From positions 17,719-81,718 of the forward strand of contig JACRPK010000006.1 in assembly GCA_016214005.1 (NCBI GenBank): a stretch of 64,000 nt of DNA, written 5' to 3'. Below are positions 3,437 through 56,247 of the stretch, in pieces (position 1 is the first letter of the stretch; each line of letters opens with the position of its first letter). Source of the stretch: Candidatus Wolfebacteria bacterium (GTDB taxonomy: Bacteria > Patescibacteriota > Minisyncoccia > UBA6257 > UBA9933). Under the pieces are notes generated by a model, which saw only the letters and a list, made by a program, of their open reading frames with translations, ran no database searches and had not been told where the DNA came from. The translations under genes and the position numbers were made by a program.

Positions 3437-3490
3437 TCTTTAAAATATTTTTTGAATTAAATATATTCAATTTGCCCGCCCTTTTTTAAT
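3437..3490 (+). repeat. ~50 bp repeat AAATATTTTTTGAATTAAATATATT..TTTGCCCGCCCTTTTTTAATGAT (second copy 17484..17535)
   Basis: Near-identical string at both loci. At the second locus it contains the stop codon of the kinase-like gene. Confidence 0.5.
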
Positions 3491-3513
3491 GATCAAATTT
3501 AATGATCAAAAAT

Positions 3514-3672
3514 TACAGCGTCAAGAAAATATGTTTTTCAGAATGTCTCGGAGGCGCAAAAAGCTTGGTCTTTTGCGAAGCAAAAGTTTTTGCGCCGAGA
3601 GCCAAGCTCTTGATTTTTCGCTGGAAAAAAATCAAAGAGCGGTTCTGAAAAACATATTTTCTTGACGCTGTA
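3514..3672. mobile_element. MITE-like structured repeat copy 1 (30-bp perfect terminal inverted repeats TACAGCGTCAAGAAAATATGTTTTTCAGAA)
   Basis: Three copies in the window (also 41576..41711 and 55953..56112), each with internal nested inverted repeats. ORFs called inside it are spurious. Confidence 0.6.
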
Positions 3673-3699
3673 ATCCCCAAAAAGTTATCCACAGCCTGT

Positions 3700-3785
3700 T
3701 CTCTCCCCATTGACTTTTTCATTTTCCCAAGTATAATGTAGGATAGAAACTTTGAAAAATACCAGTTCTAAGGTTAGAAACTGGT
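3700..3785 (+). promoter_or_regulatory. promoter cassette copy C (TTGACT 3710-3715, 17 nt, TATAAT 3733-3738) plus leader hairpin CCAGTTCTAAGGTTAGAAACTGG
   Basis: Repeat family member. The hairpin-type leader is shared with copies E and H. Confidence 0.6.
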
Positions 3786-5986: not shown

Positions 5987-6070
5987 ATCCCCGCATAAAA
6001 CCTCGCTAATTTCGCCATTGACTTTTTCATTTTCCCAAGTATAATATAGTGTAGAAACTTTGAAAAATAA
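5987..6070 (+). promoter_or_regulatory. promoter cassette copy D (TTGACT 6018-6023, 16 nt, TATAAT 6040-6045)
   Basis: Repeat family member. Followed by type-II leader ACGCATCCCTGCCTGCCGGCAGGCAGGTTTGTGAATGTGTTAATAAGAAAACCGG. Confidence 0.6.
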
Positions 6071-6077
6071 CGCATCC

Positions 6078-6097
6078 CTGCCTGCCGGCAGGCAGGT
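6078..6097. repeat. 20-bp perfect palindrome CCTGCCTGCCGGCAGGCAGG (copy 1 of 4)
   Basis: Identical palindrome at 11152..11171, 41542..41561 and 55922-ish (core CCTGCCGGCAGG). Confidence 0.6.
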
Positions 6098-6136
6098 TTG
6101 TGAATGTGTTAATAAGAAAACCGGACTTCATATTTT

Positions 6137-6154
6137 GCTATCACTAATGATAGC
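6137..6154. promoter_or_regulatory. 18-bp palindromic operator-like site GCTATCACTAATGATAGC (copy 1 of 5)
   Basis: Same palindrome (GCTATCAC yRr GTGATAGC) at 25155, 42593, 43143 and 43461. Confidence 0.45.
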
Positions 6155-6192
6155 GTGGTCAAAAATAAGTAAAGAAAGAGAGGAATTGAATT

Positions 6193-11087: not shown

Positions 11088-11171
11088 GTCCATTGACTTT
11101 TTCATTTTCCCGAGTATAATATAGGGTAGAAACTTTGAAAAATAACGCATCCCTGCCTGCCGGCAGGCAGG
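11088..11171 (+). promoter_or_regulatory. promoter cassette copy G (TTGACT 11093-11098, 16 nt, TATAAT 11115-11120) with type-II leader containing the 20-bp palindrome
   Basis: Repeat family member. Confidence 0.6.
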
Positions 11172-11272
11172 TTTGTGAATGTGTTAATAAGAAAACCGGT
11201 ACTACTATTGATAGTAGTGCCAAAGATATTTCAGACAAAGAAAGAAAAGAAAAAGAAAGAGAGGATGGGAAA

Positions 11273-13824: not shown

Positions 13825-15134
13825 ATGAAAAAGGAAATGCAGTTGAAATTGCCTTGGTTCCCGATCTTAGATATCTTGCTGGTTATTTTGTTGGGTGTGG
13901 TTTTGTTTGGTTGCGGAAGCAAAAAGGACAACAACAATAACAACAACAATAACAACGTTGTTGTCCAAAAGCCCACAGTCATTTTAACCGCCTCCGAGAC
14001 AAGCATCTGGAGAGGAAAGAAAATAACTCTTAGCTGGGAAGCTAAGAACGCCAATAGCTGCAAAGCTGTGATGTTAATCCCACCGATACCACCACCTACA
14101 GCATCACTTGCTATGGGGAGGATGGCAATTCAGCAGACGATGCCAAAAGCATCAGTGTTGATCTCTGGAAACTGCCGACTAAGTGGCATGGGGGGAATAT
14201 TAATGTTCGCGTCGCTAGCTCTGCCAAAACCAGCGATGGTATTTGGTTCGGCGAATGGTATGCTCCCAATGTCGTCAAATTCAACCTTGCCGGCAAAGTT
14301 CAATGTTCCATAGCCAAAGGTTATTATGTAGAAACTATCGCTTCCTATAGCGACAAGATCTACGCTCTTTGGCATGATGGTGACAGCGCTAGCAGTCCAG
14401 GCCACATTTCCATTTTTGACAACAACTGCAAAGAGTTGCAAGTCATTGAACCGCCGACGGGATATGTCTTTGGCAGGCTTCTGGGTGGGGGAACAATGGT
14501 TGTTGATCAAAACGGCATTGTTGTCCTTGCTTCCAATAACCCCTCAGAAGAGCTGTTTCACCTTGATTTAAATGGAAATTTCATTGGACAGCCCTTTTCG
14601 ATTACAGGCAGTACAGCTGTAATGACATTTGGTGTGACTGTTAGCAATGGAATTTCTTATACAATCGGGTTGGATACCGTAAATGGCCTCACTACAGCAG
14701 TTATTGTCAGCCATACCCTTGACAGCGCTGGCAATAATTGGGTGAATAATTCTTGGCGCTCTACTGCTTTAACAGGAGAAGCGTATACCCAAGATCTTTT
14801 CTATGCTGTCGCAGTCGGCCAAGACGGAATATACGTAGGCGGAGCAGTGACTGTTACTTATCCCAATGGCAGCGGGGATTGGACTTATCTTCTCGTCAAA
14901 TACGATTTCTTGGGAAATCGGCTTTGGCTCGTAGAAGACCGAAAGAAGAAAACGATCAACGGCCTTGCTGTTGACAGCAATGGCTATCTTTACACCAATG
15001 TTGGTGAAAAGATAAACCCTGCCGATGGTTCCGTTGTCTGGAGCATTGGAAAAACCTGCGGAGAGTCTGTTATCGTAGACAATGGAATTTTCTATGCCCG
15101 CCCTTTTTTATTTTTTGCGGAATTTGACAAATGA
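13825..15134 (+). CDS. lipoprotein with Ig-like domain and beta-propeller-like repeats; reading frame broken near 14060 (frame switches by 1 nt)
   Basis: Lipobox LFGC|GS and an Asn run. Frame A up to ~14060 (…ITLSWEAKNANSC) continues in frame C as DVNPTDTTTYSITCYGEDG…, a typical Ig-like strand pattern, through to 15134. The ORF track splits this into 13825..14313 and 14436..15134. Confidence 0.55.
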
Positions 15135-17508: not shown

Positions 17509-17535
17509 ATATATTTTGCCCGCCCTTTTTTAATG

Positions 17536-17623: not shown

Positions 17624-17893
17624 ATGTTTCATTTTGTCTACATATTATTTAGTCATAAAGATATGGGAATATATATTGGTTTTACAGATAATTTACCAAG
17701 AAGAATTAAGGAACATCATCAGGGAAATGTAAAATCAACTGAAAATCGCAGACCAATTGATTTAATATATTTTGAGGGTTATAAAAATAAAAAAGATGCT
17801 TTGCAAAGAGAAATGTATTTAAAAACAGGCTGGGGTAGAAATTATCTAAAGAAGATTATTAAAAATTATTTTCTAAATAATTCAAAAATTTAG
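17624..17893 (+). CDS. GIY-YIG nuclease superfamily protein (UPF0213/YhbQ-like), 89 aa
   Basis: GIYIGFTDNLPRRIKEHH…RRPIDLIYFE… matches the small stand-alone GIY-YIG family. Confidence 0.7.
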   Translation: MFHFVYILFSHKDMGIYIGFTDNLPRRIKEHHQGNVKSTENRRPIDLIYFEGYKNKKDALQREMYLKTGWGRNYLKKIIKNYFLNNSKI

Positions 17894-17994
17894 GCGGGCA
17901 CTCAATTTTATAGTTTCGCTTCGCTCAAATAAACTTGGCGAGTTATCCACAGCTTGCCTCTTGCAACTAATTTTACATATCTTATAATTAAAAA

Positions 17995-18738: not shown

Positions 18739-18786
18739 AAACAAGGCAATCAGAGCCTTGTTTTTTTGTTTGTCCCTTGTTTAACT

Positions 18787-18848
18787 CCTGTTTGCCTCCT
18801 GTTTGACTCCTGTTTGACTTCCGGGTTTTGGAGGTGATAAGATAAATT
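18787..18848 (+). promoter_or_regulatory. TA-module leader: tandem CCTGTTTG(A/C)C repeats, TTGACT, GGAGGTGATAAGATAAATTT (copy 1 of 3; also 19386..19437 and 19996..20063)
   Basis: The same leader precedes three toxin-antitoxin modules. Direct repeats x2-4. Confidence 0.5.
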
Positions 18849-18849
18849 T

Positions 18850-19110
18850 ATGGAAAAATTAAACACAAACACATCTTTTTATTCAATAATTATTGAAGCC
18901 TGCGAAGAGGGCGGATATTTTGCTTATTGTCCTATATTGCAAGGCTGTCATGCCGAAGGAGAGACTTATGGAGAAACAATAGATAATATTCGCGATGTTA
19001 TTAAGACTCATCTTGAATTGCGAAAAAAACATAAAGAATTGACTTCTTTTATTAAAGTTAAAAACAGATCAGATATAAATATTCAAATTCCTGTTCCAGT
19101 GGGAAATTAA
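18850..19110 (+). CDS. hicB: HicB-family antitoxin, 86 aa
   Basis: YSIIIEACEEGGYFAYCPILQGCHAEGETYGETIDNIRDVI is characteristic of HicB/UPF0150. Confidence 0.7.
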   Translation: MEKLNTNTSFYSIIIEACEEGGYFAYCPILQGCHAEGETYGETIDNIRDVIKTHLELRKKHKELTSFIKVKNRSDINIQIPVPVGN

Positions 19111-19116
19111 TTTTTT

Positions 19117-19359
19117 ATGGGCTTGAAATTTCCTGTTGTTAATTATCGCGATACAACAAAAATAGCCAAGAAACTTGGTTTTTATTTTTATCGTCAGGCT
19201 AAGGGCAGCCATGAAATTTGGAGAAGAGATATAGATGGCAGACAGACAACTATACCAAATCATGGCAGTAAAATTATTAAGCGCCGAACTTTAAAAGCAA
19301 TTTTTGAAGATTTTCAAATTTCGGCAGAGGAATTTTTTAAATTAAAAAAACATAAATAA
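19117..19359 (+). CDS. hicA: HicA-family toxin (mRNA interferase), 80 aa
   Basis: KGSHEIWRR…TTIPNHGSKIIKRRTLKAIFED matches HicA/YcfA. Confidence 0.7.
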   Translation: MGLKFPVVNYRDTTKIAKKLGFYFYRQAKGSHEIWRRDIDGRQTTIPNHGSKIIKRRTLKAIFEDFQISAEEFFKLKKHK

Positions 19360-19427
19360 CGGCATTGGGTGTTCTTTTATTTGATTCCTGTTTGACTTCC
19401 GGGTTTTGGAGGTGATAAGATAAATTT

Positions 19428-19655
19428 ATGAATACCATTACTATTCCAAAAAATTTAACCAGAGGGGCGGAGCTTGTTATAATACCCCGCGATGAGTATG
19501 AGGAATATTTGCAGTTGCGTAAAATTATTTCTGTTGTAAAAATGACTTCGGCTCAAAAACGCGATCTAGAACAGGCGAGGAAAGATTATAAACAAGAGAA
19601 ATATATTACTCTTGAGCAGCTTGAATATGAACTGGGTATTACACATAAGAAATAA
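19428..19655 (+). CDS. putative antitoxin (AbrB/MazE- or RHH-like), 75 aa
   Basis: Small ORF upstream of, and overlapping, a RelE/ParE-like gene. Preceded by the shared TA leader. Confidence 0.5.
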   Translation: MNTITIPKNLTRGAELVIIPRDEYEEYLQLRKIISVVKMTSAQKRDLEQARKDYKQEKYITLEQLEYELGITHKK

Positions 19656-19881
19656 GACAAAAAAAGAATTTTGCCGTTTTCCCATGAAAGATCGATGCTA
19701 TATTGCCGAGGCGCTTCGTGAAATAAAAGAGAACCCTTTCTTTGGCGATATTATAAAATTGGATGTAGAGAATTTTTGGCGTCGTCGCATTGGCGCTTAT
19801 CGGATTTTTTACGAAATAATTACCAGCAAAAAAATTGTTTATGTTTTTAGAATTGAACGGCGAAATTCAAAAACTTATTAG
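19612..19881 (+). CDS. RelE/ParE-family toxin (start uncertain; ATG at 19684 also possible)
   Basis: C-terminal YRIFYEIITSKKIVYVFRIERRN matches the RelE/ParE signature. Confidence 0.55.
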   Translation: MSSLNMNWVLHIRNKTKKEFCRFPMKDRCYIAEALREIKENPFFGDIIKLDVENFWRRRIGAYRIFYEIITSKKIVYVFRIERRNSKTY

Positions 19882-19888
19882 TAATATA

Positions 19889-19992
19889 ATGGAAAAATTA
19901 AACACAAACACATCTTTTTATTCAATAATTATTGAAGCCTGCGAAGAGGCGCGAAAAAAACATAAATAACGGCATTGGGTGTTCTTTTATTT
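19889..19992 (+). pseudogene. deleted hicBA remnant: first 60 nt of hicB fused to the 3' end/downstream flank of hicA
   Basis: 19889-19950 is identical to 18850-18911. 19955-19992 matches 19337-19380. The conceptual ORF is only 26 aa. Confidence 0.6.
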
Positions 19993-20063
19993 AACTCCTG
20001 TTTGCCTCCTGTTTGACTCCTGTTTGACTTCCGGGTTTTGGAGGTGATATATTAAAATAAATT

Positions 20064-25127: not shown

Positions 25128-25323
25128 ATATCCTCCTTAAATTCCTTAAATGTTGCTATCACTAGTGATAGCGTTTATTATTGAGTTTTCAAAAAAATTT
25201 AGAGTTCTTTTTTTATGTCGCGATGTTTCGTTCCCTAAATTAAACTATAAAAAATATAGCATACCTTAATGCAAAAGTCAATAGTTGCAAAGGATAATCA
25301 AATTAGTTAAAATAATATAATCA

Positions 25324-35468: not shown

Positions 35469-35739
35469 AATTTTGATAGTTTGAATACTATCACGGCTTT
35501 TTTCTCTTGACAAGGGGCAGGGCATTCATATAATGGGTAGATATCTGAAAACGGAACGAATCTGATTTTTGGAGAGAACTGATTTTTGGAGAGGACCTTG
35601 AAAAATTAAAAGTTAAAATTAAATCAGAATTTTTTTAGTTGTCCCAATTTTTATTCAAAATAGAAATGTAGTTGGTAGTGAGTAGCTGGCAAATTTTTGC
35701 TTTCTGCTTACTGCTTTCTACTTCTATTTTTATTTGAGA

Positions 35740-37322
<1,583 letters not shown>

Positions 37323-37459
37323 AAATTAATAAAAATGTTGTCGATCACAGAAGGCGTTGACCGAGGAGCCTCAAGTTTCGGTTAAAATTGGGCAACTGAA
37401 AAAGTTCTGACTAAAATCCGCCTTGCATGGCGGATTTAAATTTTGTATTATAAATTTAT

Positions 37460-41430: not shown

Positions 41431-41575
41431 ATATAAAGATTAAAAATAAGATGCAGAAAAAAATTTTTATTAATATAAATATTTTTGATTTTATAAGAAA
41501 ACATGCGTTAATCTCTCCAGCGAGGAATTTGCGCTTGGCTCCCTGCCTGCCGGCAGGCAGGTCGACTTCGCTCGT

Positions 41576-41711
41576 CAAGAAAATATGTTTTTCAGAATGT
41601 CTCGGAAGGCTAAAAAGCTTGGTCTCCGAAGGAGTTTTTAGCCTGAGAGCCAAGCTCTTGATTTTTCGCTGGAAAAAATCAAAGAGCGGTTCTGAAAAAC
41701 ATATTTTCTTG
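41576..41711. mobile_element. MITE-like structured repeat copy 2 (with 20-bp palindrome flank at 41542..41561)
   Basis: Terminal inverted repeat CAAGAAAATATGTTTTTCAGAA / TTCTGAAAAACATATTTTCTTG. Internal GGCTAAAAAGCTTGGTCTCCGAAGGAGTTTTTAGCC hairpin. Confidence 0.6.
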
Positions 41712-41801
41712 GTATCATACCCGCTCGGTCTGCGTATGATTTTTTTAATAAAATCAAAAATATTTATATATCAAATTATAAAATATTACAGGAATAGTTT
41801 T

Positions 41802-42497: not shown

Positions 42498-42592
42498 TTT
42501 TTTCCGGAATTTTTTAAGCATTTTCTGAGTGATTTTTACAAAGCGATTTTAATAAAGCATTTTTTTAAATTTTTTATGTTTAAAATATTCTT

Positions 42593-42610
42593 GCTATCAC
42601 TAGTGATAGC
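42593..42610. promoter_or_regulatory. palindromic operator-like site TTCTTGCTATCACTAGTGATAGCAAGAA (28-bp perfect palindrome) upstream of the regulator gene
   Basis: Copy 3 of 5. Identical extended copy at 43139..43164, just downstream of the same gene. Confidence 0.5.
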
Positions 42611-42660
42611 AAGAATGATATAATTATTATATAATGCAATAAAATAAAAATAATAATTTT

Positions 42661-43131
42661 ATGGAAAATCTTTCTAATTTTAAATCAAGAAAAGAATGGG
42701 AAGAATTTATTTGGCATAAATTTTTAGAAGGTCTTAAGGATGCTAAAACAACGGGGCAGTTAAAAGAAATTTTAGAAAGCGTTTTAGACGGTCGCGAGAA
42801 AAATTTTATGATTAAGCGATTGATTGTGATTGCCTCAATCAGCCAAAATAAAACATATCGGGAAATCAGCGAACTTTTATGGCTGTCTCCGAATACAATT
42901 AGTTCAATTAAAAAAAGTTTATTTAAGAAAACAATTTATAGCGGTTATAAAAAATCAAATGCTAAATTTAATAAAAATAATAAAGAAGTTTCAAAGAAAA
43001 AATGGGGAGATGTCGCTTTTGATTTATTGGAATCATTTTCTCGCATTCCATTGCCGCCATTTATAGGAAAAAATCGCTGGCGTTATTTGGATGTAGATTA
43101 TCAAGACAAGATAAAATACGGTAAAAAATGA
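42661..43131 (+). CDS. TrpR/YerC-YecD-like HTH transcriptional regulator, 156 aa
   Basis: TYREISELLWLSPNTISSIKKSL helix-turn-helix as in the TrpR-related YerC family. Flanked by the palindromes. Confidence 0.55.
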   Translation: MENLSNFKSRKEWEEFIWHKFLEGLKDAKTTGQLKEILESVLDGREKNFMIKRLIVIASISQNKTYREISELLWLSPNTISSIKKSLFKKTIYSGYKKSNAKFNKNNKEVSKKKWGDVAFDLLESFSRIPLPPFIGKNRWRYLDVDYQDKIKYGKK

Positions 43132-43164
43132 TAAATTTTCTTGCTATCACTAGTGATAGCAAGA

Positions 43165-43545
43165 AAAGAGAGGGGGAAAAGATGGGGGAATGAAGAAAAA
43201 ATGAGGGGAAAAGATGGGGGGGGGAGAAAAGATGAGAAAATAAAGAAAAAATGGGGAAAAAAATAATAAAATTTTTTATTATCACTGATGATAACATGGA
43301 GAAAAGATATGGAAAAAAGAGAGATAAATAAAGAGAATATAAGAGAGAAAAAAGGGGGGGAGAAGAAGGTAATTGATGGGAGAGAAAATAATAAAATAAA
43401 TTAATCATTGCGCGGTATTGTTATAATTAATAAAAAATAGTAATTGATTAAAAAATAGATGCTATCACCAGTGATAGCGCTAAAAAGAAAAACAAGAGGG
43501 GGAGGGAAAACAAAGAATAAATTTAAGAATATTTAAGAATAAAAA
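43165..43545 (+). repeat. purine-only low-complexity tract with G-homopolymers and GAAAAGATGGGG repeats
   Basis: ~380 bp almost devoid of pyrimidines on the + strand. Contains G9 and G8 runs. Operator copy 5 is at 43461..43478. Confidence 0.6.
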
Positions 43546-55816: not shown

Positions 55817-55952
55817 TTTTAAATTTGTATAATACAATCATATTTTGGATTTTATTCTCGCTAACGTTTCGCGCAAAAACACGCTATCATTTCGTTACAG
55901 GCGGAATGCGCTCGGCTCCATGCCTGCCGGCAGGCAGGTCGACCTCGCTCGC

Positions 55953-56112
55953 CAAGAAAATATGTTTTTCAGAATGTTCCCTCACCCTTGAACAAGGGTG
56001 AGGGAGAAGGCTAAAAAGCTTGGTCTCCGAAGGAGTTTTTAGCCTGAGAGCCAAGCTCTTGATTTTTCGCTGGAAAAAATCAAAGAGCGGTTCTGAAAAA
56101 CATATTTTCTTG
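55953..56112. mobile_element. MITE-like structured repeat copy 3 (extra internal hairpin CCCTCACCCTTGAACAAGGGTGAGGG)
   Basis: Same TIRs and core as copies 1 and 2. Palindrome flank at ~55922. Confidence 0.6.
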
Positions 56113-56247
56113 GCATCATATCCATTCGGCCTGCGAGACGATTTTTTAGCGAAACGCTGGCGGAGATATTATTGGCATATAGTCTAAGATAGGGTTGCAT
56201 TATACAATATTTTGACAATTATTTAATTTTGAGTATAATTGAAAAAT

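Follow-up and report, generated by a model that had tools for sequence, protein, structure and literature searches.

Three intergenic positions in the 64,000-nt stretch of Candidatus Wolfebacteria DNA analysed here, which is called the window, carry the same structured sequence, and the question is whether this sequence is a repeat that spreads as DNA, a structured RNA present in several copies or a set of ordinary terminators that look alike. A preliminary description had proposed a MITE-like element in three structured copies, all of which end in perfect inverted repeats. A search with the 22-mer CAAGAAAATATGTTTTTCAGAA gave six exact matches in the window, arranged as three inverted pairs (3522-3543/3643-3664, 41576-41597/41690-41711 and 55953-55974/56091-56112), and all six arms (6/6) were identical. 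The number of arm matches expected by chance was 0 (100 shuffles, with up to three mismatches allowed), and no further arm with three or fewer mismatches was found in the window. Both the three copies and their perfect ends, 22 nt long in each case, were therefore as described.

The core delimited by the 22-nt terminal inverted repeats had a size of 136 to 160 nt, typically about 140 nt, and all three window copies were on the plus strand. Copy 1 was located at 3522-3664, copy 2 at 41576-41711 and copy 3 at 55953-56112. A covariance model (R1) built from these three copies scored them at 157.6, 168.1 and 158.5 bits, respectively. A search of the 64 kb with R1 and the speed filters off yielded exactly three copies, and the weaker hits were plain AT-rich terminator hairpins. 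In the fold of the core the two arms form a long stem (P1) that encloses the hairpins P2 and P3, the latter consisting of CTCTTGATTTTT...AAAAATCAAAGAG. The nested inner inverted repeats listed in the preliminary description were present in all copies, but not with the same sequence in all: P2 of copies 2 and 3 is GGCTAAAAA...TTTTTAGCC with the inner hairpin CTCC-GAA-GGAG, while copy 1 carries the compensated variant GGCGCAAAAA...TTTTTGCGCC with the inner hairpin CTTTTGC-GAA-GCAAAAG. The additional hairpin reported for copy 3 was located at 55978-56005 (TCCCTCACCCTTGAACAAGGGTGAGGGA). Copy 1 has an extension of its own, a 10-bp continuation of the stem (ATTACAGCGT / ACGCTGTAAT), and its inverted repeat is perfect over 32 nt (3512-3543/3643-3674) and not over the 30 bp given before; the element with this extension accordingly occupies 3512-3674 on the plus strand instead of 3514-3672.

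Predicted fold energies were 6.7 to 10.6 standard deviations below those of shuffled sequences (z of -6.7 to -10.6), with both strands alike. The whole-locus folds gave -82/-80, -117/-111, -141/-140 and -124/-127 kcal/mol for the plus and minus strands. As both strands were about equally stable, folding is silent on which strand is relevant and on whether RNA or DNA is concerned; G.U counts did not single out one strand either. Covariation was assessed in an alignment of four distinct sequences, namely the three window copies and a copy from a foreign organism on the groundwater contig L013. All 204 stem cells of this alignment (204/204) held standard pairs, and 8 pairs had changed on both sides with pairing kept. 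The double changes comprised GGCT/AGCC versus GGCGC/GCGCC versus GCGC/GCGC in P2, CTCC/GGAG versus CTTTTGC/GCAAAAG in its inner hairpin and a change from A-T to C-G in P3. Three one-sided changes were present, all of which gave G.U pairs on the plus strand. None of the 500 shuffles reached the observed values, and sliding the partner columns abolished the signal. The unpaired junctions and loops were nearly invariant across the aligned copies.

Such data would be expected from a multi-copy structured RNA, either an sRNA gene or a cis-acting 3'-UTR element, the fold of which is itself selected and the copies of which are paralogues. The complete pairing with eight compensatory changes, the G.U-only one-sided changes and the conserved junctions and loops all favour this RNA, and the perfect pairing and the one-sided changes count against mobile repeats in that they also fit a selected RNA. 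The equal stability of both strands speaks against it, and so does the sequence of the arms. These differed pairwise at 0 to 1 of 44 positions, while elsewhere in the core 12 to 18 differences in 96 positions were counted in pairs with copy 1 or L013, and only 5 between copies 2 and 3. The contrast between arms and remainder gave Fisher p values of 0.003 and 0.0008 for copy 1 versus copies 2 and 3, and of about 0.06 in each comparison with L013. The few arm differences together with the compensated inner changes show that the arms are kept in sequence and the inner stems in pairing only. An RNA stem would not need a 22-bp P1 of invariant sequence, and long perfect duplexes are typical of DNA palindromes and RNase III targets rather than of stable functional RNAs. 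A search of copies 1 and 3 against Rfam at E <=10 returned only noise of at most 23 bits, which also argues against an RNA gene.

Around the cores of copies 2 and 3 and of L013 a conserved quasi-palindromic shell was found, with which the unit measures 227 to 274 nt; copy 1 is a core without a shell. Copies 2 and 3 agree over about 45 nt before the core and over 37 nt after it, and the flanks of L013 are the same but diverged. On the 5' side the general order is an A-run (AAAACAYGC), the hairpin H1, GCGCTYGSC and CYTCGCTCGY, and on the 3' side of the core it is GGYAYCATR, a second stem that covaries (loop CCGCTCGGYCT) and a T-run. The unit of copy 2 (41497-41747, plus strand) consists, from 5' to 3', of the A-run, H1 (41505-41534), GCGCTTGGC, a 20-bp palindrome (41542-41561), CTTCGCTCGT, the core, the 3' arm GGTATCATACCCGCTCGGTCTGCGTATGA and the T-run. 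In the unit of copy 3 (55875-56148, plus strand), H1 occupies 55888-55908 and the palindrome 55919-55938, and the 3' arm extends over 56113-56148. The stem of H1 varies by locus; the H1 loop reads CCAGCG in both copy 2 and L013, and UUACAGG in copy 3. The 3' hairpin of the shell covaries (AUCAUAC/GUAUGAU versus ACCAUGC/GCACGGU), and its conserved loop CCGCUCGG is complementary to the H1 loop. The covariation of H1 (with the CCAGCG loop) and the 3' hairpin and the complementarity of their loops are further points in favour of a selected RNA.

The preliminary description had recognized the cores and a longer flank common to copies 2 and 3 that includes a 20-bp palindrome, but it had missed the quasi-palindrome of 250 to 274 nt in these two copies, its setting in palindrome centres and the separability of its modules. 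The shared flank is real; the palindrome CCTGCCTGCCGGCAGGCAGG is exact only at copy 2, has one mismatch at copy 3 (CATGCC...) and occurs elsewhere as well. L013 lacks it, so the palindrome is a small module in its own right, which entered the shell of copies 2 and 3 by insertion. Stand-alone copies of CCTGCCTGCCGGCAGGCAGG were present at 6077-6096 and 11152-11171, each in a 5' leader shortly after the repeated promoter described below, and behave as an independent small module or operator. Another operator-like palindrome, TGCTATCACTAGTGATAGCA, was found six times in the window (6132-6156, 25150-25174, 42588-42612, 43138-43162, 43273-43297 and 43451-43483), and four of these copies surround a Trp-repressor-like gene (42661-43131).

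Outside core and shell, an outer palindrome contiguous with the repeat was present in all four loci read as DNA (4/4), and its sequence was specific to the locus and unrelated between loci. The outer arms of copy 2 (41473-41501 / 41741-41769) are 29 nt long and 93% complementary, and those of copy 3 (55859-55879 / 56142-56162) are 21 nt long and 81% complementary. The outer inverted repeat of L013 has 16 nt at 94% and that of copy 1 has 10 nt at 100% complementarity. Each locus is therefore a hairpin-in-hairpin of 160 to 300 nt. No solo shell arms were found in the 338 kb of sequence searched.

The preliminary description had reasoned that copies confined to the window, with neither flanking duplications nor a discrete transcript, would point to a simple local duplication. 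Copy 2 was translated in a single frame and searched against 1.84 billion representative proteins. Two matches were obtained, both to spurious ORFs, one of which belongs to the metagenome contig L030 and the other of which is MBI4993465.1 (HZC33_00695). The translated core of the latter was 96% identical, and it is encoded on another, 25-kb contig of the same MAG. The window was tied to this MAG by the locus tags HZC33_01110 and HZC33_01115 on the 84-kb contig and by its UvrA, which was 100% identical to MBI4993612.1. The GenBank hypothetical proteins HZC33_01115 (window 3513-3722, minus strand) and HZC33_00695 are mere translations of the repeat.

The N-terminus of MBI4993465.1 corresponds to the minus strand of a 3' arm of the copy 3 type including the outer arm, which is near-identical to the outer arm of copy 3 (55859-55879), and is followed by the plus strand of the core. 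The arm being read on the minus and the core on the plus strand, the core is flipped relative to the shell arm; as this fourth copy is known from its protein sequence alone, the flip depends on a correct assembly and may be an artefact at an inverted repeat. The second flank was unlike any known arm. Judged from these arrangements, core and shell are separable modules, the core occurring with a shell, without a shell and flipped against a shell arm, which an RNA domain would not tolerate.

The flipped core could also indicate an invertible or recombinogenic DNA site, in which the 22-bp repeats are crossover sites and a flip switches a terminator-like signal near genes such as those for pilins. 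This would agree with the fourth copy, in which the interior has the opposite orientation against a 3' arm of the same type and the junctions are identical, with an asymmetric interior that has a terminator-like hairpin on one strand only, with the position of one copy between pilin genes and with the inversion reported for Correia elements (PMC10969869). No recombinase gene was found nearby, the three window copies all have one orientation, and the other flank of the fourth copy is unlike the expected 5' arm; because of this mismatch, the fourth copy represents another locus rather than a flipped allele. An invertible site would also leave the dispersal of the repeat and its occurrence in a foreign genome unexplained, and is considered improbable. 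If the repeat spreads as DNA, recombination between the two arms could invert its interior as well.

For other genomes, the GTDB representatives and the JGI metagenomes were scanned with an exact 20-mer, by which diverged terminal repeats would be missed. The representative genomes, a set that evidently does not include the source MAG, gave seven chance single hits, among them a 22/22 match inside a coding region of Woesearchaeota without a second arm. The JGI metagenomes gave one real match, the 2.1-kb groundwater contig L013, at 163 bits. This copy was 91% identical, with terminal repeats of 24 nt at 96%. The locus was recovered in three further assemblies (L030-L032), and the element was present in all four (4/4). 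The host of L013 has a GC content of 48%, compared with 36% for the window, and the core has 38 to 40% in both. The known loci are thus five: the window has three, a further contig of the MAG has one and a foreign organism has one. The copies are not limited to the window, which excludes a simple local duplication and supports a dispersed, horizontally shared repeat.

No similar sequence was found in IMG/VR (three motifs) or by blastn against plasmids and phages. At the uvrA loci of the nearest relatives (UvrA 79 to 83% identical) no copy was present within flanks of up to 10 kb, and the gene order after uvrA was not conserved; the closest UvrA relative has a simple hairpin and T-run alone after uvrA. 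A homologue of the gene next to L013 (69% identity) had no copy, and its locus was not syntenic. A Logan contig with the gene neighbouring copy 1 ends 39 nt past the gene, short of the element. At the Rfam gathering threshold the window yielded only 16S rRNA, RNase P RNA and tRNA. A hammerhead-type junction was rejected after a check by hand, as CUGAGAG and not CUGANGA is present, and an integron attC site, a retron, a CRISPR and a toxin-antitoxin system were rejected as there was no array, reverse transcriptase, integrase or conserved peptide. A search of the full-text literature found no description of MITE-like elements in CPR/Patescibacteria.

Two of the RNA genes had features of their own. 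The 16S rRNA gene (35730-37327) exceeded the Rfam model by about 65 nt and contained an AT-rich hairpin insertion (36870-36965, about 21% GC) between conserved blocks; such expansions of the 16S rRNA have been reported for CPR rRNAs. The RNase P RNA gene was bracketed by a 34-nt imperfect inverted repeat (56221-56254/56612-56645), which continues past its P1 helix, into the promoter on one side and into the downstream region on the other.

With respect to mobility, the repeat has the terminal inverted repeats, the small size and the non-coding nature of a MITE, and its copies are dispersed in unrelated contexts. The ORFs over the copies vary in strand and frame, and the "proteins" recorded in databases for the repeat are all spurious hypothetical ORFs. 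The proposed check for target-site duplications was negative: no consistent duplication was found at any candidate boundary with shifts of up to 4 nt, and the flanks are inverted repeats. A 2-bp GY...GY repeat was confined to the shared junction of the shell and was absent at copy 1. Among the window ORFs of at least 200 aa there were no Pfam hits for a transposase, integrase, recombinase or RAYT-like/Y1 protein, no longer element with the same terminal repeats was found in the window or in the exact-20-mer public scans, and no empty site was recovered among the loci examined. The MITE reading thus held for terminal repeats, size, non-coding nature and dispersal, but the repeat lacks a target-site duplication and is not a MITE in the strict sense, and neither a transposase nor a partner element was found in the sequences searched.

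The modules appear to move or to be copied as DNA, as is suggested by the dispersal over contigs, the occurrence in a host of foreign GC content, the arms conserved in sequence, the core with, without and flipped against the shell, and the small palindromic insertions, which together are not what one RNA gene passed on by inheritance would show. Target duplications are lacking and the flanks are inverted in all four loci (4/4), a pattern that does not fit classical cut-and-paste transposition and that agrees with insertion into palindrome centres or with fold-back extension. By the first route, modules would insert into palindrome centres or hairpin loops, including those of other copies, and so give rise to nesting. 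By the second, fold-back priming would extend an existing palindrome outward, a result that is not distinguishable here from insertion. The moving enzyme would act in trans and would not be encoded nearby. Rather unlikely, in our estimation, is a more far-reaching version, in which the repeat spreads by recognition of hairpin loops or palindrome centres without target duplications, by an enzyme new to CPR transposition (e.g. a small GIY-YIG nuclease like that described below at a site paralogous to the site of copy 1), or in which it is a structured RNA of about 250 nt that is specific to Parcubacteria and has a loop-loop contact.

The intergenic positions given in the preliminary description were all correct. 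Copy 1 follows a C39-like gene and is next to a GNAT gene, and copy 3 follows uvrA and is next to the RNase P RNA gene. At copy 2 the gene for PilC is followed by a prepilin gene and a pilin-like ORF, and the copy lies between the last two. All three window copies (3/3) follow the end of a gene, precede the next transcription unit and have the orientation of the gene upstream. Promoters with 11 or 12 of 12 consensus positions follow copy 1 (3710-3737) and copy 3 (56212-56239). No conserved promoter was found upstream of the copies.

Several other repeated sequences were noted at the promoters and leaders of the window. A promoter module of about 80 nt, CCATTGACTTTTT-N-TATAAT...GTAGAAACTTTGAAAAATA, is present in eight copies between 851 and 13764 (e.g. 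2425-2506, 3680-3761, 6015-6124 and 11090-11199). These modules precede the genes of an apparent RiPP-type cluster, which encode M16 peptidases, a C39-like protein, a GNAT protein, two radical-SAM/SPASM proteins and an MvdD-like ATP-grasp protein. A DnaA-box-like sequence, GTTATCCACAG(C), occurs at 3684-3695 and 17942-17953, 10 to 20 nt upstream of -35 elements, and a similar sequence is present in an unrelated groundwater contig (L033, about 370-385). A small GIY-YIG nuclease is encoded at 17624-17893 (Pfam E = 1.7e-15), and an inverted repeat of 24 nt (17599-17622/17875-17898) brackets its gene; the intergenic site is paralogous to that of copy 1, the two sites having GCCCGCCCTTTTTTAATGAT to the left and GTTATCCACAGC to the right in common. 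Short repeats of the CCTGTTTGACT type and a repeated leader of about 70 nt were found at 18766-20056, before three near-identical small ORFs (starting at about 18850, 19428 and 20064).

Every core contains on its plus strand a terminator-like hairpin, TGAGAGC-CAA-GCTCTTG followed by ATTTTT (41644-41660 in copy 2, with the same motif at 3596-3612 and 56045-56061), which is a match to the consensus only and which competes with P3 for the CTCTT segment. On the strand that carries the upstream gene, a G+C-containing hairpin of 6 to 7 bp is thus predicted directly before a run of five U's, as in intrinsic terminators. As the copies lie between a gene end and a promoter in the orientation of the upstream gene, transcripts should fold into a long hairpin with a short hairpin and a U-run. 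From their sequence and position, the copies probably act as transcription terminators or insulators. The perfect duplex of 22 to 32 bp in a read-through transcript would be a substrate for RNase III, by analogy with Correia elements.

If the copies were nothing but lookalike ordinary terminators, local duplications or an assembly artefact, their location at terminator sites would be expected, as would basal A- and T-runs similar to those of the plain bidirectional terminators of this genome (33393-33444 and 26310-26363). The latter, however, are 35 to 55 nt long and mutually unrelated, while the repeat is 84 to 100% identical over about 140 nt across unlinked loci, contigs and organisms of different GC content, which convergence cannot produce, and the sequence of the foreign locus was identical in four independent assemblies. 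This explanation is very improbable. The motif GCCCGCCCTTTTTT was also observed after three gene ends (3474-3487, 15096-15109 and 17518-17531); as no complementary arm was present in the 60 to 70 nt upstream, it is not an obvious hairpin terminator.

The genes on either side of the L013 unit are divergent, so that a terminator would have no evident purpose there, and this counts against a family of mobile repeats that serve as terminators. In such a region only an independent transcript would make sense, and together with the co-orientation of all window copies with genes this favours a structured RNA. The lack of a conserved upstream promoter does not. With the stability of both strands, the invariant P1 and the modular arrangements also taken into account, a selected multi-copy RNA is regarded as unlikely, if still a serious contender. 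The explanation we lean towards, with slightly more confidence than doubt, is a previously undescribed MITE-like family of small, non-coding, nested-palindrome intergenic repeats of CPR/Patescibacteria, the modules of which were moved or copied as DNA and which are probably terminators or RNase III substrates.

Among known systems, the Correia elements (CREE/NEMIS) of Neisseria are non-coding intergenic sequences of 100 to 200 bp with inverted repeats of about 22 to 26 bp, which are dispersed and often co-transcribed with their neighbours. RNase III cuts the duplex of their terminal repeats, and their interior can invert (PMC10969869). Compared by features and not by sequence, the Wolfebacteria repeat resembles them in size, terminal repeats, location and its flipped fourth copy. 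It differs in having no TA or other consistent duplication, in being nested in a second conserved palindrome and in locus-specific palindromes, in its CPR host and in its copy number (at least 4, compared with more than 100 for Correia elements). The pneumococcal repeats insert into one another, and SPRITE is terminator-like (PMC10969869, PMC3049150). BOX, RUP and SPRITE are modular hairpin repeats with clustering and mutual insertion, to which the build of core, shell and palindrome and the terminator-like hairpin are comparable. Going by their description, the modules of BOX are arranged in tandem (A-Bn-C), whereas those of the Wolfebacteria repeat are nested.

The cognate IS of RUP is IS630-Spn1; for the Wolfebacteria repeat no cognate IS was found in the window or in the exact-20-mer scans. 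IS1397 and ISKpn1 target REP/BIME palindromes, and insertion at a palindrome centre leaves half-palindromes as inverted flanks, as in all four loci (4/4) here. Unlike these IS, the Wolfebacteria repeat as the inserted sequence is a non-coding palindrome, no RAYT or IS3-type transposase was found among the window ORFs of at least 200 aa, and such a mechanism is inferred. Intrinsic bidirectional terminators have in common with the repeat the A-run, hairpin and T-run at gene ends and the inner 6-7-bp hairpin with five U's, but the repeat is 140 to 300 nt long, branched and alike in sequence across loci and organisms. By analogy, the Wolfebacteria repeat would be a new family of the Correia/RUP/BOX/SPRITE kind, the nested-palindrome setting being its sole unusual aspect.

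The practical value of the finding is modest and consists of a new covariance model for annotation and a warning about spurious ORFs over the element. In MAG assemblies the repeat can be a source of inversions and of contig breaks. For the organism, it may supply ready-made terminators between transcription units. Its position in palindrome centres without target duplications hints at a mechanism of insertion or extension unlike that of cut-and-paste MITEs. The very small genomes of CPR/Patescibacteria are regarded as poor in mobile or repeated DNA, and a family common to two organisms of different base composition marks a horizontal flow of DNA among the ultra-small bacteria of groundwater.
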